This document shows positions 1,614 through 57,746 of a stretch of 64,000 bases of DNA, one piece after another. The stretch lies in contig DUKY01000007.1 in NCBI GenBank assembly GCA_013329055.1, positions 51,146-115,145 of the forward strand. The letters are read 5' to 3'. The position numbers and the translations under genes were made by a program. Each line of letters starts with the position of its first letter. Position 1 is the first letter of the stretch. The notes under the pieces were generated by a model. It was not told where the DNA came from. It saw only the letters and a list, made by a program, of their open reading frames with translations, and made no database searches. The stretch is from Nanobdellota archaeon (GTDB taxonomy: Archaea; Nanobdellota; Nanobdellia; Pacearchaeales; GW2011-AR1).

Positions 1614-4243
1614 ACAATTTTTATTCTAAAACAAAAGAGGAGATATTCAGGGAATTTAATAGTTCTGCAAATGGTTTAAATCAAAAAGAAGTTGATTTCA
1701 AACAGGAAAAATATGGAAAAAATGTTATAAAACAAATTCATAAATTAAGACCTTTGAAGATTTTTTTTGAACAATTTAATTCATTTTTAATTTACATTTT
1801 GATAATCGCAGCGGGAGTTTCATTTTTTATCGGACATTCTACAGATGGCTTTGTGATTTCAGCAATAGTTTTGCTTAATGCATTTATAGGATTTTTCCAG
1901 CAATTAAAGGCAGAAAAAGCGATTGTTAATCTTAGAAAATTAATTATTCCAATTTCAAAAGTTATTAGAAAAAATAAATTAATGGAAATTAATTCTGAGG
2001 ATTTAGTTCCGGGAGATATAATCATCCTTGAAGCAGGAGATAAAATTAACGCTGATTGCAGAATAATTGAATCAGAAAACTTGCAAACTAATGAAGCAAT
2101 ACTTACAGGTGAAAGTTTACCTGTTGATAAATGGGATATTCTTTTAAAAGATTCAACAATTATATCCAGACAAAGCAATATGCTTTTTGCAGGGACTCAA
2201 ATTGTAAGGGGCAATTCAAAAGCGATTGTTGTTGCAACAGGAATAAATACTGTTTTTGGAAATCTTGCAGAAACATTACAGGAGATAGAGATAACTAAAA
2301 CACCTATGCAAAAAAGATTGGATAATTTTTCCAAACAAATTGGGTTCATAATATTATTCGCGGTAAGTGCAATTATTTTAATGGGTTTTATGAAAGAGTT
2401 TGATACTTTAAACATGTTTATGATTGCGGTTGCTTTAGCGGTTTCAGCAATTCCGGAGGGGTTGCCTGCAGTTCTTGCAGTTTCATTTGCAATTTCTTCT
2501 TTATTAATGTCTAAACAAAATGTGATTATTAGAAGGTTGCCTGCAGTTGAAAGTCTTGGAAGTGTTACGATCATTTGTTCAGATAAAACCGGTACAATTA
2601 CCGAAGAAAAAATGGAGATTCGGGAGATTTTTGCAAATAATAATTTCTATATTAAAAACGGAAAAGAGATTTTTTTGAAAGATAAAAAAATAGATATTGA
2701 GAAAAATAAGGAACTTTACCAATTAATTAAAACAAGTCTTTTATGCAATAATGCCAGATTTGAAGAGAATAACGGGGAATATGAAGTAATTGGAGACCCT
2801 ACTGAGGGGGCATTAGTTTTAGCAGGTTTAGATTTGGGATTAAATAAAAAATTATTAATTGACAAAGAGCCAAGTATTCAAAGATTTGAATTTGATTCAA
2901 AGAAAAAGATGATGTCAATTCTTAGGGATAATGGGAGAAATAAAGTTCTTTATTCTAAAGGTGCACCGGAAAAGATTTTACAGATTTCAAGTTTTGAACT
3001 TGTTAATGGACAGATAAAAGAATTGACATTGAAGAGAAGAAAAGAATTATTAAATTCTTCAAGAAAATTGGAAAAAGATGCTTTGAGAGTGTTGGCATTT
3101 GGTTACAAAAATATTCCTGTTAAGAGCAAGGCTAAAGAAGGAAATTTGATCTTTTTAGGATTTGCCGGGATGATTGATCCTCCAAGAAAAGAGGTAAAAA
3201 ATGCGATACAAGAATGCAAGAATGCTGGGATTAAAGTTAAAATGATTACTGGGGACTCAGCATTAACTGCCAAAGCTATTGCAAAAGAAATTGGCATTGA
3301 GGGGGAGATTATTTCAGGAGAGGAGTTAGAGGAGATGAACGATATGACACTTACAAATAGAATTGATAATATTTCTATTTTTGCGAGGATTACTCCTTCT
3401 CAAAAATTAAGGATTACAAAGATTTTGCAACAAAAAGGGGAAGTGGTTGCAATGACTGGCGATGGGGTTAATGATGTTTTGGCGTTGAAATCTGCAGATG
3501 TCGGAATTGCAATGGGAAAAAGGGGTACAGATATTGCACGTGATGCTTCAGATATTGTTTTAGTTAATGATAATTTTGCTTCAATTGTTGAGGGGGTTAA
3601 ACAAGGGAGAAAAACATATGATAACATTAAAAAATTTACGAAATATTTTTTGGCAGTTAATTTTAGTGAAATTTTCTTAATTTTATTTGCGTTAATTATG
3701 GGATTATTTTATGGTCCTGAAAAATGGTTCTTGCCTCTTTTGCCTTTACAAATTTTATGGATTAATTTAATTACAGATTCTTTACCTGCTTTGGCTTTAG
3801 TTTTTGAAAAAGAAGAGAATGTTATGAATACTCCTCCAAGAAAAGAAAAAAGTTTATTAGACGGTATCTGGAAATTTGTGATTCTTGCGGGAATTTTAAC
3901 TTTTGCAATAAAATTAGCAATTTATTTGATTGAAGTCAGCAATACTTTATCAATTGACAGGACAAGAACACTTATTTTAACTACTGCAATTTTCTTTGAA
4001 TTATTTTTTGTTTATTCCTGCAGAACAGAAAGTTCATTATTGAAGAATGGAATTTTTTCAAATAAATGGTTAAATTATGCTGTACTTATATCAATAATAT
4101 TACACCTTATTTTATTGTATAGTCCGTTAGGAATTATATTCGGGGTTATTCCTTTGACTATAAAAGATTGGTTATTTATTTTACCATTTGTAGTTTCCGG
4201 TTTAGTTATTTTTGAAATTGGAAAATTGATTAAGAAGAAATAG
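1610..4243 (+). CDS. P-type cation-transporting ATPase (P2-type, Ca2+/Mg2+-like)
   Basis: It has the phosphorylation motif CSDKTGTIT and the hinge motif MTGDGVNDVLALKSADVGIAMG, with about 10 TM segments. The start overlaps the upstream stop by 4 nt. Confidence 0.85.
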   Translation: MNNFYSKTKEEIFREFNSSANGLNQKEVDFKQEKYGKNVIKQIHKLRPLKIFFEQFNSFLIYILIIAAGVSFFIGHSTDGFVISAIVLLNAFIGFFQQLKAEKAIVNLRKLIIPISKVIRKNKLMEINSEDLVPGDIIILEAGDKINADCRIIESENLQTNEAILTGESLPVDKWDILLKDSTIISRQSNMLFAGTQIVRGNSKAIVVATGINTVFGNLAETLQEIEITKTPMQKRLDNFSKQIGFIILFAVSAIILMGFMKEFDTLNMFMIAVALAVSAIPEGLPAVLAVSFAISSLLMSKQNVIIRRLPAVESLGSVTIICSDKTGTITEEKMEIREIFANNNFYIKNGKEIFLKDKKIDIEKNKELYQLIKTSLLCNNARFEENNGEYEVIGDPTEGALVLAGLDLGLNKKLLIDKEPSIQRFEFDSKKKMMSILRDNGRNKVLYSKGAPEKILQISSFELVNGQIKELTLKRRKELLNSSRKLEKDALRVLAFGYKNIPVKSKAKEGNLIFLGFAGMIDPPRKEVKNAIQECKNAGIKVKMITGDSALTAKAIAKEIGIEGEIISGEELEEMNDMTLTNRIDNISIFARITPSQKLRITKILQQKGEVVAMTGDGVNDVLALKSADVGIAMGKRGTDIARDASDIVLVNDNFASIVEGVKQGRKTYDNIKKFTKYFLAVNFSEIFLILFALIMGLFYGPEKWFLPLLPLQILWINLITDSLPALALVFEKEENVMNTPPRKEKSLLDGIWKFVILAGILTFAIKLAIYLIEVSNTLSIDRTRTLILTTAIFFELFFVYSCRTESSLLKNGIFSNKWLNYAVLISIILHLILLYSPLGIIFGVIPLTIKDWLFILPFVVSGLVIFEIGKLIKKK

Positions 4244-4337
4244 GAGAAAGATCCTTAAATATTGTTAACAATATTATACTCGAAAAGAATTTAAAACCTC
4301 ATTTTTTATAATTCTTAAGAGGTTTCTAAAATTTTAT

Positions 4338-22878: not shown

Positions 22879-23220
22879 ATGAACATATACGTTTCAAAAC
22901 ATTTAAAAGGAAAATACCTTCTGGATATATATATTAAACTATACAAGTCTAAGATGAAAAACAATTTTGACGTATTTTTTCGAAGAAAGCCAGCGATGAT
23001 TCTGGTAGCTTTGAAAAAGAACACAAGGATGAGGTATGGTAGTGTTTTGGCTAAAGAAGTGGATTGCACTTATAGCCATGCAGTGAAAATTCTGCAAACC
23101 CTGGAAGAACTAAAGTTAGTTGAATTTAAGAAAAAGGGGCGAATAAAGGTGATTAAACTAACTAAGAAGGGTAACGATGTTGCAGATGCTATTGAGAATA
23201 TCAATAAGCTGATAAAATAA
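22879..23220 (+). CDS. Small winged-helix transcription regulator
   Basis: wHTH-like segment MRYGSVLAKEVDCTYSHAVKILQTLEELKLV. Divergent from 22319..22669. Confidence 0.45.
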   Translation: MNIYVSKHLKGKYLLDIYIKLYKSKMKNNFDVFFRRKPAMILVALKKNTRMRYGSVLAKEVDCTYSHAVKILQTLEELKLVEFKKKGRIKVIKLTKKGNDVADAIENINKLIK

Positions 23221-23503
23221 AACCGCCAAGCCCCTGAAAGAAGATATGATTTAAATCATATTATAAACCACTGATAGGAATAGTGGACATTATTTATTTT
23301 TTTATTTAATTCCTTAAAATTTTATAAAATCCCGACGGGATTTTCCTCATAACCCATGAAAGCTTCTTTAAATTCACCCTCAAAAGTTATTCGTTCATTT
23401 ATTCGAACTTTCAGAGTTACTCGCCCGCAACTTTTAAAGTTTTTTGAATCTACTCAGATTAAACCCTTGAAATAAATATATACCTTTCTGTTTGTATATA
23501 TTA

Positions 23504-23599
23504 TGACCCCGACGGGAGTTGAACCCGCGACACCCAGATATCTCCATTGATAATTAAATCTAAGAGTCTGGTGCTCTAACCAGGCTGAGCTACGGAGCC
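23504..23599 (-). tRNA. tRNA-Lys (anticodon CUU) with a ~21-nt intron at the canonical 37/38 position
   Basis: Manual fold: acceptor GGCUCCG/CGGGGUC, D arm GCUC-AGCCUGGUUA-GAGC, anticodon stem CCAGA/UCUGG with loop CUCUUAA interrupted by GAUUUAAUUAUCAAUGGAGAU. T arm GCGGG-UUCAACU-CCCGU, discriminator A. Confidence 0.75.
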
Positions 23600-24030
23600 A
23601 TAGTAAAACATTAGTGATTTACTTTAAAAATATGTTGATTTACGTTAGCACCAGACGTAACTGGGGACGTTGAAAATTTGCCAAAAAGAAATTTTTAACA
23701 ATCAGAGAATTAAATTACAATTCTCTGAATCTAACCAGGCTGAAGCTACTGCAGCCATAGTAAAACATTAGTGATTTACTTTAAAAATATGTTGATTTAC
23801 GTTAGCACCAGATGTAAAGAGTCTGGAGACGTTGAAAATTTGCCAAAAAGAAATTTTTAACGATCAGAGAATTAAATTACAATTCTCTGAGTCTAACCAG
23901 GCTGAAGCTACTGCAGCCATAGTAAAACATTATTGATTTACTTTGGCACCAGACGTAAAGAGTCTGGGGACGTTGAAAATTTTGTAAAAAGAAATTTTTA
24001 ACGATCAGAGAATAGATTGATTGAAAATTT
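23600..24030. repeat. Tandem array upstream of tRNA-Lys: about 2.7 units of ~160 bp, each carrying a promoter-like segment, a 27-nt degenerate copy of the tRNA 5' end and a 10-bp-stem hairpin
   Basis: Repeated gcagccat (complement of the tRNA 5' end GGCUGCAG…) at ~23751-23758 and 23911-23918. Repeated cagagaattaaattacaattctctg hairpin. Confidence 0.8.
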
Positions 24031-24033
24031 TTT

Positions 24034-24342
24034 TTATCGGTATTGCTTAAAAGTATGATTACATTTTACACATTCAAAGAATCGTGTTTCAGCTTCATCA
24101 CTTCCACGAGTTTGTCTTGTCCAAAAATAGCATTTCCCATGACTACATTTCATACATTTTTCATCAGTTATTGGCCGAACATCAAGAGTATTATCTTTTA
24201 TTACTGCAATTTCTTTTTTTTCTTCAATTTTTTCAGAAATCGAAAGATTTACTTTTCCTTTGATTATAAACCCGCATCTTAGGCATTCACCATTAGTTCC
24301 TTTTTGCATAACAACAGCACCGCATTTGGGACAAAATTCCAT
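24034..24342 (-). CDS. tfs: Transcription factor S / RNA polymerase subunit M
   Basis: N-terminal Zn ribbon (CPKCG…CLRCG) and C-terminal TFIIS-type Zn ribbon with RGSDEAETRFFEC. Confidence 0.85.
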   Translation of the reverse strand: MEFCPKCGAVVMQKGTNGECLRCGFIIKGKVNLSISEKIEEKKEIAVIKDNTLDVRPITDEKCMKCSHGKCYFWTRQTRGSDEAETRFFECVKCNHTFKQYR

Positions 24343-29329: not shown

Positions 29330-29485
29330 ATTATATTAAAATAATCATATTATTTAAATCTTTTTTGCCGAAAGGAATTTTTATTCTTTTTATGATTTGC
29401 AAAAGGATTATTACTGGGAAATAAATAATTAGGGATAATATAACAGTGTTCTACTCCAAAATTTGCTTTTTTTCTAAAACCCTAA

Positions 29486-29496
29486 CTTTTAAAAAT
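29486..29496 (+). promoter_or_regulatory. Duplicated copy of the tRNA-His promoter-like A/T box upstream of the tRNA-His pseudo-copy
   Basis: ttttaaaaatc lies ~30 nt upstream of the GGCGG start. The whole ~75 bp upstream segment is duplicated at 29440-29525 and 29740-29805. Confidence 0.3.
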
Positions 29497-29525
29497 CTCA
29501 TAATTTATCTATAAACATTCATAAT

Positions 29526-29736
29526 GGCGGTTGTGGTATACAGAAATTAAAAATTTCTGTCCCTACAGGATTAAACTGTGCCTTCGCACAGAAAGATATT
29601 AAAAATCCTGAAGGTACAGAGATTAAAAATTCTGTCCTACAGGATTAAACTGTGCCTTCGCACAGAAAAATATTAAAAATCCTGCAGGTAACGGTTATTA
29701 CATACGGTTGGGGTCAGAGCAAAGAGGGTTCGACTC
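29526..29736 (+). pseudogene. Truncated/disrupted tRNA-His copy: 5' 15 nt, then a 150-bp hairpin-dimer insertion, then a mutated anticodon/T region, with no 3' acceptor strand
   Basis: GGCGGTTGTGGTATA | 29541-29690 insertion | ACGGTTATTACATACGGTTGGGGTCAGAGCAAAGAGGGTTCGACTC, then the duplicated promoter region. Confidence 0.55.
29541..29690. repeat. Tandem dimer (76 + 74 bp) of a cruciform-like hairpin module inserted in the D-loop of the tRNA-His pseudo-copy
   Basis: Each unit has cagaaattaaaaatttctg and caggatt…ctgtgccttcgcacag…aatcctg hairpins and ends in ggta. Confidence 0.8.
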
Positions 29737-29766
29737 AAAAATTCGCTTTTTTTCTAAAACCTTAAC

Positions 29767-29778
29767 TTTTAAAAATCT
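29767..29778 (+). promoter_or_regulatory. Candidate archaeal TATA-like box for tRNA-His
   Basis: cttttaaaaatc lies about 28-40 nt upstream of the tRNA start at 29806. Confidence 0.3.
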
Positions 29779-29805
29779 CATAATTTATCTATAAACATCA
29801 ATAAT

Positions 29806-29878
29806 GGCGGTTGTGGTATAACGGTTATTACGTCCGGTTGTGGTCCGGGCAAAGAGGGTTCGACTCCCTCCATCCGCT
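29806..29878 (+). tRNA. tRNA-His (anticodon GUG) with an encoded G-1
   Basis: Manual fold: G-1, acceptor GCGGUUG/CAUCCGC (one U·U), D arm GUAU-AACGGUUA-UUAC, anticodon stem UCCGG/CCGGG with loop UUGUGGU. T arm GAGGG-UUCGACU-CCCUC. Confidence 0.75.
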
Positions 29879-30352
29879 TAATAAATCAGAGACGAACCCT
29901 GGGTTCGATGAAAAATTTTGTGGTAGAAACTTATTCTTTCAGATAAAAATTCAAGCATTGAATAAAAGAGTTTCGTGCAAGATTTTGAACATCCCTCCAT
30001 CCGCTTATTTTCTTTACAGAAAATTGCGTAAGTTCGGGAGTCTTCGACTCCACAATTCGCATTCCGTGAAAGCTTCTTTAAATCAAGGAAAATTTTGATT
30101 TATTTGAACTTTCAGAAATGCTCAATTCGCATTCCGTGAAAGCTTCTTTAAATCAAGGAAAATTTTGATTTATTTGAACTTTCAGAAATGCTCACCATCC
30201 GTTTAATAAATAAGAGGCGAACCCCGGAGTTCGATGAAAAATTTTGTGGTAGAAACTTATTTTTTCAGATAAAAATTCAAGGATTGAACAAAAGAGTTTC
30301 GTGCAAGATTTTTAACATCCCTCCATCCGCGTTTTATTTTTAAGAAAGATTT
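29879..30352. repeat. Array of 3-4 modules downstream of tRNA-His, each bounded by a copy of the tRNA 3'-terminal 12 nt (CCCTCCATCCGC)
   Basis: 3'-end copies at 30003-30014, 30195-30201 (partial) and 30319-30330. Modules 29879-30002 and 30202-30318 are ~90% identical. The middle module has a tandem ~82-bp duplication (30046-30189). Confidence 0.8.
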
Positions 30353-41669: not shown

Positions 41670-41784
41670 TTTTTTATATTTCCTGAAATAATAATGTTAG
41701 AAAATCTTTGATTTTCTATATATTCAAAACTTTTACTTCTGATCTTTGCGTAGGCAAAGTTTAGTTTTGAATTGATTATCTCTT

Positions 41785-57128: not shown

Positions 57129-57685
57129 TCACTACTTACAGAGAATCAAAGATTCTCTGAAACACAAAATCTATACTGTGCCTACGCACAGATCAGAAGT
57201 ACAGATTTTGTTGTGTCCTAAAAAATTTCTAAAGAAATTTTTGGGAATTCAGAGATTGAAAATCTCTGGAACTTCAGGGAACCTGAAGTCTTCAAAAGGC
57301 GTTACTTTTGAAGTAATCTAACCCTTGGGTTATATTCACTTCAAAATATACTTGTTTTGAAGTCCCAGAGAATTTGAAAAATTCTCTGAGCCTCCTTAAT
57401 GGGTACGGAGGTACAGAGAATCAAAGATTCTCTGAAACACAAAATCTATACTGTGCCTACGCACAGATCAGAATTACAGATTTTGTTGTGTCCTAAAAAA
57501 TTTCTAAAGAAATTTTTGGGAATTCAGAGATTGAAAATCTCTGGAACTTCAGGGAACCTGAAGTCTTCAAAAGGCGTTACTTTTGAAGTAATCTAACCCT
57601 TGGGTTATATTCACTTCAAAATATACTTGTTTTGAAGTCCCAGAGAATTTGAAAAATTCTCTGAGCCTCCTTAATGGGTACGGAG
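57129..57685. repeat. Two tandem ~285-bp units, each a string of ~9 short hairpins, each ending in a copy of the tRNA-Trp 3' end
   Basis: Unit period 57129 to 57414. Hairpins include cagagaatcaaagattctctg, ctgtgcctacgcacag, cagagattgaaaatctctg, cttcagggaacctgaag. Terminal ccttaatgggtacggag occurs at 57394-57410 and 57669-57685. Confidence 0.85.
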
Positions 57686-57746
57686 GGAATCTAACCCCCG
57701 TCTGCCGGGCTGGAGCCGACCATAATAAACATTATACTACGCACCC
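57675..57746 (-). tRNA. Candidate tRNA-Trp (anticodon CCA) with atypical D- and T-loops
   Basis: Manual fold: acceptor GGGUGCG/CGUACCC, anticodon stem GUCGG/CCGGC with loop CUCCAGC, T arm GGGGG-UUAGAUU-CCCUC. D-loop AAUGUUUA lacks GG and T-loop lacks C56. Confidence 0.5.

Follow-up and report, generated by a model that had tools for sequence, protein, structure and literature searches.

The window, the whole 64-kb stretch of DNA analysed here, carries an intact tRNA-Lys(CUU) gene (23504-23599) that stands among degenerate copies of its own parts, those of its 5' part lying upstream in a tandem array and one of its 3' end lying downstream; the locus is best described as relic copies of the tRNA gene's own ends, tandemly amplified and invaded by hairpin modules. 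We compared it with the tRNA-Lys loci of 80 Pacearchaeota species (the sister-species set, L010-L089), and we lean towards an origin in which the working, intron-containing gene sits among relics of older parts of itself, left by recombinational rebuilding and then multiplied by unequal crossing-over.

The working gene is recognised by Rfam family RF00005 (52.7 bits against a gathering threshold of 29), by ARAGORN and by its cloverleaf fold; in an Rfam 15 scan of 23150-24100 it was the sole match, all others having E values of ~1-5. Like the other features of this locus described below, it is on the minus strand, and it consists of exon 1 (23561-23599), a canonical intron of 21 nt (23540-23560) and exon 2 (23504-23539). 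The intron is at position 37/38, where the fold forms a bulge-helix-bulge. It shows the anticodon stem and a central helix of 4 bp (CUCU/GGAG); the 3' bulge is 3 nt long, and the 5' bulge can be drawn as UAG. The odd 4-base anticodon called by ARAGORN is due to this intron. A predicted promoter box, TTTTTAAA (23623-23630), read from the sequence, has its 3' end 23 nt before +1.

Upstream of the gene, Tandem Repeats Finder (TRF) reported an array at 23575-23944 with 2.3 copies of a 162-bp period (93% matches, score 639), and a repeat search added a third copy, diverged and shortened, that reaches 24013 with 88% identity at a 141-nt spacing. The array totals ~2.7-2.9 units, two full units of 162 bp and one truncated, which agrees with the roughly 2.7 tandem units of ~160 bp placed before the gene in a preliminary description of this DNA; the head-to-tail order and high identity that define a tandem array are both present (period 162, 93-97% identity), and the self-alignment proposed there as a check found the units periodic and the tRNA-like fragments beyond chance. 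Unit A (23600-23729; delimited by TRF, the repeat search and an alignment to assembly L007) adjoins the tRNA and holds a hairpin, a T-run and a promoter box; its relic of the anticodon arm carries a deletion of 5 nt. Unit B (23757-23891) is full and 97% identical to unit A over 122 nt, and the truncated distal copy, unit C' (23919-24013), which aligns with unit B, terminates in a half hairpin adjoining the stop codon of the neighbouring TFS gene.

Two pseudo-copies of tRNA nt 1-27, both reading GGCTGCAGTAGCTTCAGCCTGGTTAGA, accompany these units, each differing from the real 5' end of tRNA-Lys by one mismatch and two 1-nt insertions. The proximal pseudo-copy (23730-23756) is preceded by an intact promoter box (23780-23787), and TTTTTAAA ends 23 nt before it as it does before the working gene; the box of the distal pseudo-copy (23892-23918) was removed by a 21-nt deletion. 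A perfect 10-bp hairpin of the AGARAAT...ATTYTCT family, TCAGAGAATT-7-AATTCTCTGA, was found by inverted-repeat search at 23702-23728, followed by a T-run, TTTCTTTTT (23683-23691), and the same search found a second perfect 10-bp hairpin at 23864-23890; the third, at the edge of the array, is a half hairpin only. A pattern scan for this hairpin type gave eight matches against 0.00 expected, all at the tRNA-Lys and tRNA-Trp loci, and the 82-nt pseudo-unit folds as RNA with z = -4.1. The preliminary description had given each unit a promoter-like stretch, a 27-nt copy of the acceptor and D-arm and a perfect hairpin: box and hairpin hold for two of the three units, and the 27-nt copies are real but understate the units, which also hold the anticodon arm.

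This anticodon-arm relic corresponds to tRNA nt 27-43 in spliced form. Local alignment placed it at 23800-23827 in unit B, with equivalents at 23643-23666 in unit A, where it carries the deletion, and at ~23941-23968 in unit C'; the sequence CCAGACTCTTTACATCTGG (CCAGACTCTTTAC(A/G)TCTGG) agrees with the arm at 17 of 19 positions (against shuffles, p=0.0005 in unit B and p=0.001 in unit C'), and the repeat search found 10-mers common to the anticodon arm and the units. The order within a full unit is thus promoter box, nt 1-27, an insert of 62 nt composed of the hairpin and T-run TTTCTTTTT, and intronless nt 27-43. With a copy of the anticodon arm in them, the units go back to a longer stretch of the gene, nt 1-43 or more, and are not relics of a 27-nt fragment. 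A candidate T-loop relic farther on inside the unit (TTCAACGTCCC) was rejected as not significant (p=0.16).

Downstream, the degenerate copy of the tRNA 3' end noted in the preliminary description is confirmed: the window has two exact occurrences of CCCGACGGGA, one at 23331 and one at 23508, with 0.00 expected, and the downstream match extends to 12 of 13 nt. This relic (23331-23343, from the repeat search; AAATCCCGTCGGG on the tRNA strand), 165 nt beyond the gene, comprises the T-loop, the 3' strand of the T-stem and the 3' strand of the acceptor, and it is closer to the T-arm of species L089 (CAAATCCCGTCGGGG) than to that of the window's own tRNA (CAACTCCCGTCGGGG). Between gene and relic lies a hairpin-rich module (23344-23503) in which TGCGGG copies the 5' strand of the T-stem and which also holds a hairpin, GAAAGCTTCTTTAAAT...GAACTTTCAGA (23356-23415), that recurs at the tRNA-His locus, as had been proposed; exact matches to GAAAGCTTCTTTAAAT in the 64 kb are restricted to 23358 at the Lys locus and 30068 and 30138 at the His locus. 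The downstream order is T-stem 5' strand copy, inserted hairpin module, then T-loop and acceptor 3' strand, the same layout as a conserved downstream module in L016, L047, L035 and L054. In those four species the module is a second tRNA 3' part, TCG[N]GGGT, a 57-nt insert and AAATCCC...GGCCA, in which N agrees with each species' own tRNA (T, G, G and A, respectively). Compared by sequence, the window's modules had no blastn homology to those of other species at E<1e-4, the only match being to the conserved downstream winged helix-turn-helix (wHTH) gene.

The hairpin common to the Lys and His loci belongs to a family, GTGAAAGCTTCTTTAAAT...ATTYGAACTTTCAGA, found in the window at 23356-23415, 30066-30120 and 30136-30190 and in a relative strain, L153, at 832-960. 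Its outer part is conserved, and its inner stem shows compensating changes, TCAA/TTGA in the window versus TCGAG/CTCGC in the relative strain.

Relic copies across sister species and tRNA loci

To survey the sister species, each mature tRNA was compared with its own flanks, 700 nt per side, and an exact-word version of the survey was also run. The order TFS to tRNA-Lys(CUU) is retained in most of the 80 species. Direct matches numbered 46 against two inverted ones, and their placement follows the geometry seen in the window: all 28 upstream direct matches are to the 5' part of the tRNA, and all 18 downstream ones fall within its 3' part, most of them at its 3' end. The 3' copies mostly begin at nt 54-61, in the T-loop, and the longest 5' copies finish at nt 40-43, in the anticodon arm. 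Tandem arrays recur in L088 (5 x 63 nt), L065 (2 x 73), L077 (2 x 60) and L053 (at least 3 x ~97), as expected from unequal exchange between repeats. The relic pattern, first noted as a feature of the window, is present there but is wider: relic copies are a trait of the lineage and of the tRNA-Lys locus across Pacearchaeota. That the pattern is common to many related DPANN archaea points to tRNA genes that have been repeatedly rebuilt, leaving relics behind.

Some sister loci hold whole genes. In L060 (6640-7275), a HicB/HicA toxin-antitoxin pair lies between a tRNA-Lys 5' fragment (nt 3-40) and the intact gene, and in L084 (9395-11840), two tRNA-Lys copies 1.7 kb apart, together with a 3' half fragment, bracket TrmB-like and unknown open reading frames. 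This gene cargo indicates that tRNA-Lys is also an insertion hot spot for genes.

The preliminary description had assigned the same architecture to the window's other two tRNA loci, and this is so for tRNA-His, which has relics on both sides, but not for tRNA-Trp, where they are downstream only. At the tRNA-His locus (29450-30340), the upstream relic is a truncated copy that keeps the promoter region together with nt -1 to 61, its D-loop holding a double element of 152 nt; downstream, a ~114-nt module and a 70-nt module, each in two copies, are bracketed by copies of the last 13 nt, at 29993, at 30321 and, in degenerate form, at 30196. In L153, the His locus has at least three tandem units of 214 nt, each a near-complete tRNA-His copy with the anticodon arm intact and the element in the D-loop, and the anticodon-stem 5' strand of the window's His pseudo-copy is that of L153. 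At the tRNA-Trp locus (57137-57686), two units of 275 nt with 99% identity each open with the last 12 nt of tRNA-Trp, followed by a 263-nt module with similar AGAGAAT-type hairpins at both ends; the Trp units of the relative strain (L150) are 101 and 179 nt. Scans for CAGAGAWT...AWTCTCTG gave eight matches against 0.00 expected and for CTGTGC...GCACAG four against 0.01, and the hairpin families are limited to the window's tRNA loci, save for one diverged CTGTGC...GCACAG copy at 41700-41775 (minus strand).

Proposed rebuilding of the gene versus local duplication

In the origin that we favour, recombination at the gene would have inserted DNA and restored a complete tRNA at once, displacing the old 5' part and its promoter upstream, and a separate event would have displaced the old 3' part downstream. 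Short direct repeats would then have allowed unequal crossing-over or replication slippage to build the tandem array and its copy-number variation, a step that is partly shown. Support for such rebuilding comes from the anatomy of the locus, from the lineage-wide geometry, arrays and gene cargo described above, from the unit missing in assembly L007 and from the old gene starts and old intron in the leaders described below. In addition, the inserted DNA lies between direct repeats of the tRNA end, and the tRNA is intact where it meets one of them, as in attachment-site (att) duplication, and the relics keep other alleles than the working genes, an L089-type T-loop in the 3' relic and an L153-type anticodon-stem strand in the His relic.

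The parallels are with two known kinds of event, integrase-type end duplication and tRNA gene disruption, and the window and its sister loci are variations on both. Integrases that target tRNA genes have their crossover points in the anticodon loop or T-loop or at the 3' end; those of the pTN3 type use the 5' half of the gene, and there the rebuilt gene is expressed from a promoter of the element (PMC8371274). As in such systems, direct repeats of the tRNA ends flank an insert, with 5' copies upstream and 3' copies downstream of a restored intact gene, the boundaries of the copies at the T-loop and anticodon arm fall in known crossover regions, and some sister species have cargo. Here, however, the DNA between the repeats is 60-160 nt, non-coding and integrase-free, the units are tandemly amplified, the displaced copies carry inserted hairpin modules, and in sister species it is the working tRNA that is promoterless. 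In Caldiarchaeum subterraneum, a tRNA-Thr 5' fragment lies upstream of the gene with a mobile element between them, in a case of intron gain (Sugahara et al. 2012, PMC3293823). Our locus resembles it in the upstream relic 5' fragment, in the difference in intron content between relic and gene and in its within-population variation; the insert there is 1.8 kb and encodes a recombinase, whereas here the inserts are tiny and the relics several and in tandem.

Several points weigh against rebuilding. No integrase or other mobile-element gene lies in or beside the window's modules, which are 130-160 nt with no open reading frame, and none was seen with the HicAB and TrmB-like cargo of sister species; inserted DNA of 60-160 nt is far below any known integrative element. 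Two motif scans of IMG/VR returned only chance matches and no circular or viral source of the modules. The longer self-copy leaders described below pair the fragment with a degenerate inverted self-copy, which an integrase model does not predict. Assembly L007 of the same population, which lacks exactly one unit, unit A beside the tRNA, could reflect repeat collapse in short-read assembly. Finally, the leader and downstream modules are 71-82% identical between species in which TFS four-fold sites are near saturation, and L017 and L077 share 82% over 143 nt, with 7/19 at four-fold sites, which is unexpected for scars. Introns are similarly conserved, being 90-96% identical between some species, and this weakens the conservation objection: it fits an intron origin of the modules and does not require a new function.

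The IMG/VR matches are to unrelated sequences, of which three come from genomes with 48-59% G+C and two resemble the modules in the motif only, so these scans gave a viral or plasmid source no support. The L017 and L077 loci also stand out in the stretch from the TFS end to tRNA-Lys, where the leader region and tRNA are 81-95% identical while the TFS proteins are 67% identical; different genes have been inserted between TFS and tRNA-Lys in the two species, and a palindrome, CCAAGCTTGG, occurs on both sides of the tRNA in L077. Horizontal transfer of a tRNA cassette, or strong constraint on it, is a possible explanation for this similarity.

A serious rival, to which we give appreciably less weight, is that local replication errors alone, with no mobile DNA, made the locus: slippage or template-switching would have duplicated sequence from upstream of the promoter into the tRNA body, further slippage would have expanded the array, and the survival of those duplications that left one complete gene would explain the geometry. 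The head-to-tail units with their 93-97% identity suit this origin, as does L007, with its difference of exactly one unit. A perfect hairpin stands exactly at the junction between the fragment and the remainder of the unit, and the unit carries an inverted match to tRNA nt 23-32 (GTCTGGTGCT/AGCACCAGAC), both of which template switching by fold-back would be expected to leave; an inverted copy of the fragment is also present in the self-copy leaders of other species. Tandem duplication, however, predicts that the spacer between fragment and tRNA copies the sequence upstream of the fragment, and in the single-fragment loci of L089 and L038 it does not. Nor do local errors account readily for the same hairpin families at three tRNA loci and one non-tRNA site, or for the gene cargo that separates fragment and tRNA in L060 and L084. 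A simple fold-back model of the leaders (direct, inverted, inverted upstream, direct) was rejected, as the linker before the tRNA is unlike the inverted upstream sequence in L089 and L038.

However the first copy arose, there is good support for a later tandem amplification through unequal exchange. The whole-unit difference in copy number expected of it is seen in L007, which could be natural copy-number variation or a repeat collapsed by short-read assembly, and the relative strain, which is closely related (contig Ga0208953_1000024), has other unit numbers and lengths at its His and Trp loci.

Promoters, self-copy leaders and the question of function

We scanned 83 tRNAs for the box TTTTWAAW and found it ending 21-26 nt before +1, mostly at 23 nt, in 33 of them (31 in the loci of other species, nearly all tRNA-Lys, and two in the window), with its centre near -27 and against a background rate of 0.9% per 6-nt window. 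From these predicted starts, Pacearchaeota tRNA promoters appear to be placed for leaderless transcription. Leaderless tRNAs of Nanoarchaeum equitans have a strict promoter placement 26-27 nt upstream (PMC10100707), and the likeness, a box at a fixed distance in the window and at 33 of 83 tRNAs, nearly all of them Pacearchaeota tRNA-Lys, is one of promoter placement.

Fifteen species with an upstream fragment have no box within 60 nt of the working tRNA. At nine of these 15 self-copy-leader loci, a box ends 22-26 nt before the first fragment, so the fragment marks an old gene start there; judged by box position, the precursor in these nine species should begin at the fragment and carry a self-copy leader of 60-190 nt. 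In L060 too, the tRNA has no promoter box close by; it comes after hicBA, and the two may therefore share a transcript. Unlike N. equitans, which is free of RNase P, Pacearchaeota with leaders of 60-190 nt, and L060, imply that some 5'-processing activity is present; given long leaders in several species, such an activity must exist in these archaea. According to a review, some RNase P protein is encoded in every archaeal genome examined (PMC6380272). L141, an AT-rich relative, has an open reading frame at 4033-4335 whose N-terminus, on our reading, is like that of the RNase P protein Pop5; it lies directly after a two-hairpin element described below, and the proteasome alpha subunit is next.

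The leader of L011 (8512-8634, minus strand), whose tRNA-Lys is intronless, is made up of nt 1-15, a hairpin and a ~55-nt block, and it aligns to exon 1 plus the canonical intron of L035 (4442-4526), L058 (5193-5277) and L032 (7099-7195). Given this homology, the leader is a remnant of an older, intron-containing 5' part and the working gene a newer, intronless copy, and one module can occupy either leader or intron. The window reverses L011: its relics are intronless, and its working gene has the intron.

We think it unlikely that the upstream units and self-copy leaders are functional RNAs, either a structured pre-tRNA leader or a short transcript controlling the folding, processing or expression of tRNA-Lys, with the hairpin modules as recognition sites for an RNA-binding or RNA-cutting protein. 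The proposal draws on the box at the correct distance before the fragment and on the pairing of the fragment with the leader 3' end in 13 of 15 leaders, six of which, with fragments of at least 22 nt, are individually significant (z -1.9 to -4.0). It also draws on a compensatory change between L038 and L089 (TGGTA/TACCA versus TGGTT/AACCA), on the conservation of modules between species and on a related two-hairpin element whose outer stem covaries (14/16, p<=0.04) and whose inner stem shows compensatory changes. But the window's fragments are degenerate and the distal one is promoterless, the window's modules have no detectable homologue among those of other species, at least one leader, that of L011, is plainly an old intron, and no Rfam family matches; most species are leaderless, so the leader is dispensable. 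Guide RNAs of the C/D-box or H/ACA type were rejected for the modules, in which no consistent boxes or pocket could be seen by eye and Rfam snoRNA matches were weak (E ~1-5), and so was a self-cleaving ribozyme in the leaders, as no Rfam ribozyme reached its gathering threshold in the window and 15 related loci. If the promoter of the proximal relic is active, its transcription should stop at the hairpin and T-run after ~70 nt; such termination would insulate the working tRNA, with its leaderless placement, from a read-through 5' extension.

No relic is in use as part of a tRNA: the acceptor strand of the pseudo-copies does not pair with the 3' strand, and there is no way to draw a splicing motif, so they cannot function as tRNA parts. 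That they belong to a split or multi-part tRNA joined by the splicing endonuclease, as in N. equitans or Caldivirga, is therefore very improbable. The organism is in the same phylum as N. equitans and the fragments begin at the expected transcription start, but a complete tRNA-Lys(CUU) gene is present, the acceptor strand GGCUGCA of the fragment is unable to pair with the 3' strand CGGGGUC (a mature tRNA built from the fragment would carry GGCUGCAGUAGCUUCAGCC), and no complementary leader and trailer pair was found. Inspection of the L089 and window loci, together with the folds, rejected the fragment as a true 5' exon, no bulge-helix-bulge being drawable at the D-arm or acceptor stem. The likeness to the split and permuted tRNAs of N. 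equitans, Caldivirga and Thermofilum (PMC4033280, PMC3218864) lies in the separate gene pieces behind promoters; the locus differs from them in its intact gene, its degenerate pieces and its lack of complementary joining sequences or bulge-helix-bulge motifs.

Chance resemblance or assembly artefact is the least credible alternative: short-read metagenome assembly can mis-assemble tandem repeats, but the 813-bp spacer between TFS and wHTH is identical in eight of nine independent assemblies of the population, from different samples and pipelines, so the array is not an assembly artefact, and with a TRF score of 639, motif matches at 0.00-0.01 expected by chance and the same geometry in dozens of species, this alternative is refuted for the existence of the array and applies only to the copy-number variant L007.

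Alongside the relics, we observed a two-hairpin element with an invariant core, ACTGTGCCTNCGCACAGA, set in an outer stem that covaries between genomes. It occurs in the window at 29537-29690 (two copies), on the plus strand at 57137-57240 and 57412-57515 and on the minus strand at 41700-41775, and in L096, L104, L105, L116, L117, L122-L124, L128, L132, L133, L141, L146 and L149; the host contigs are AT-rich, DPANN-like metagenome. The element is often found within a few nucleotides of tRNA genes or in the intergenic spacers of operons for ribosomal proteins and RNA polymerase. When a MAFFT alignment was folded with RNAalifold, the outer stems were out of register and the invariant inner stem alone was recovered; duplex tests of each sequence against shuffles were used instead, and for 14 of the 16 instances these found the outer stem significant (p<=0.04). 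Compensatory variants are seen in the inner stem (CTTTGC/GCAAAG, CTGCGC/GCGCAG and TTGTGC/GCACAA). No Rfam family matches the element, which looks like an undescribed structured RNA motif.

Repetitive extragenic palindromic (REP) elements, miniature inverted-repeat transposable elements (MITEs) and palindrome-associated transposable elements (PATEs) are short palindromic intergenic repeats, and the hairpin families here resemble them in recurring in non-coding DNA and, in the Trp module, in the similar hairpins at its two ends. They differ in that no transposase is linked and no target-site duplication was seen, and in one family a core of 18 nt is invariant across many different genomes and its flanks covary, which is more typical of a functional RNA motif. 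We hold with little confidence the broader proposal that relics and modules form an undescribed RNA system, made up of a self-copy leader folding on its antisense copy, hairpin and T-run insulators and a widespread two-hairpin motif with an invariant ACUGUGCCUNCGCACAGA core, which together would mark processing or termination sites beside tRNAs and in DPANN information-processing operons.

Gene context and wider meaning

Besides TFS (24034-24342, minus strand), the archaeal proteins encoded in the window include UvrB, UvrC and two phosphoenolpyruvate (PEP)-utilising enzymes, and G+C across the window is 23-32%. Identical copies of the TFS protein are found on aquifer-metagenome scaffolds and in the metagenome-assembled genome GCA_013331835.1; in a collection with one genome per species, its nearest relatives are 47-61% identical and labelled Pacearchaeota, Woesearchaeota or Nanoarchaeota. 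The window's population is groundwater Pacearchaeota, a DPANN lineage. A comparison of the same locus in relatives, proposed in the preliminary description, found the geometry recurring among the 80 species.

How archaeal tRNA genes become interrupted, split or intron-bearing is a long-standing question with few natural intermediates. The locus and its 80 sister loci are an intermediate series, in which intact genes stand beside relics, intron content differs and arrays expand and contract, and the value of the finding is mainly in this lineage-wide series and less in the single locus. For annotation, the repeats that flank tRNA genes in these genomes should not be taken for extra tRNA genes, split tRNAs or CRISPR-like arrays. 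Together with the N. equitans-like promoter placement of the lineage, the series makes both the model of intron gain and loss by recombination and the maturation of DPANN tRNA 5' ends testable, for which existing metagenomes and metatranscriptomes would serve.

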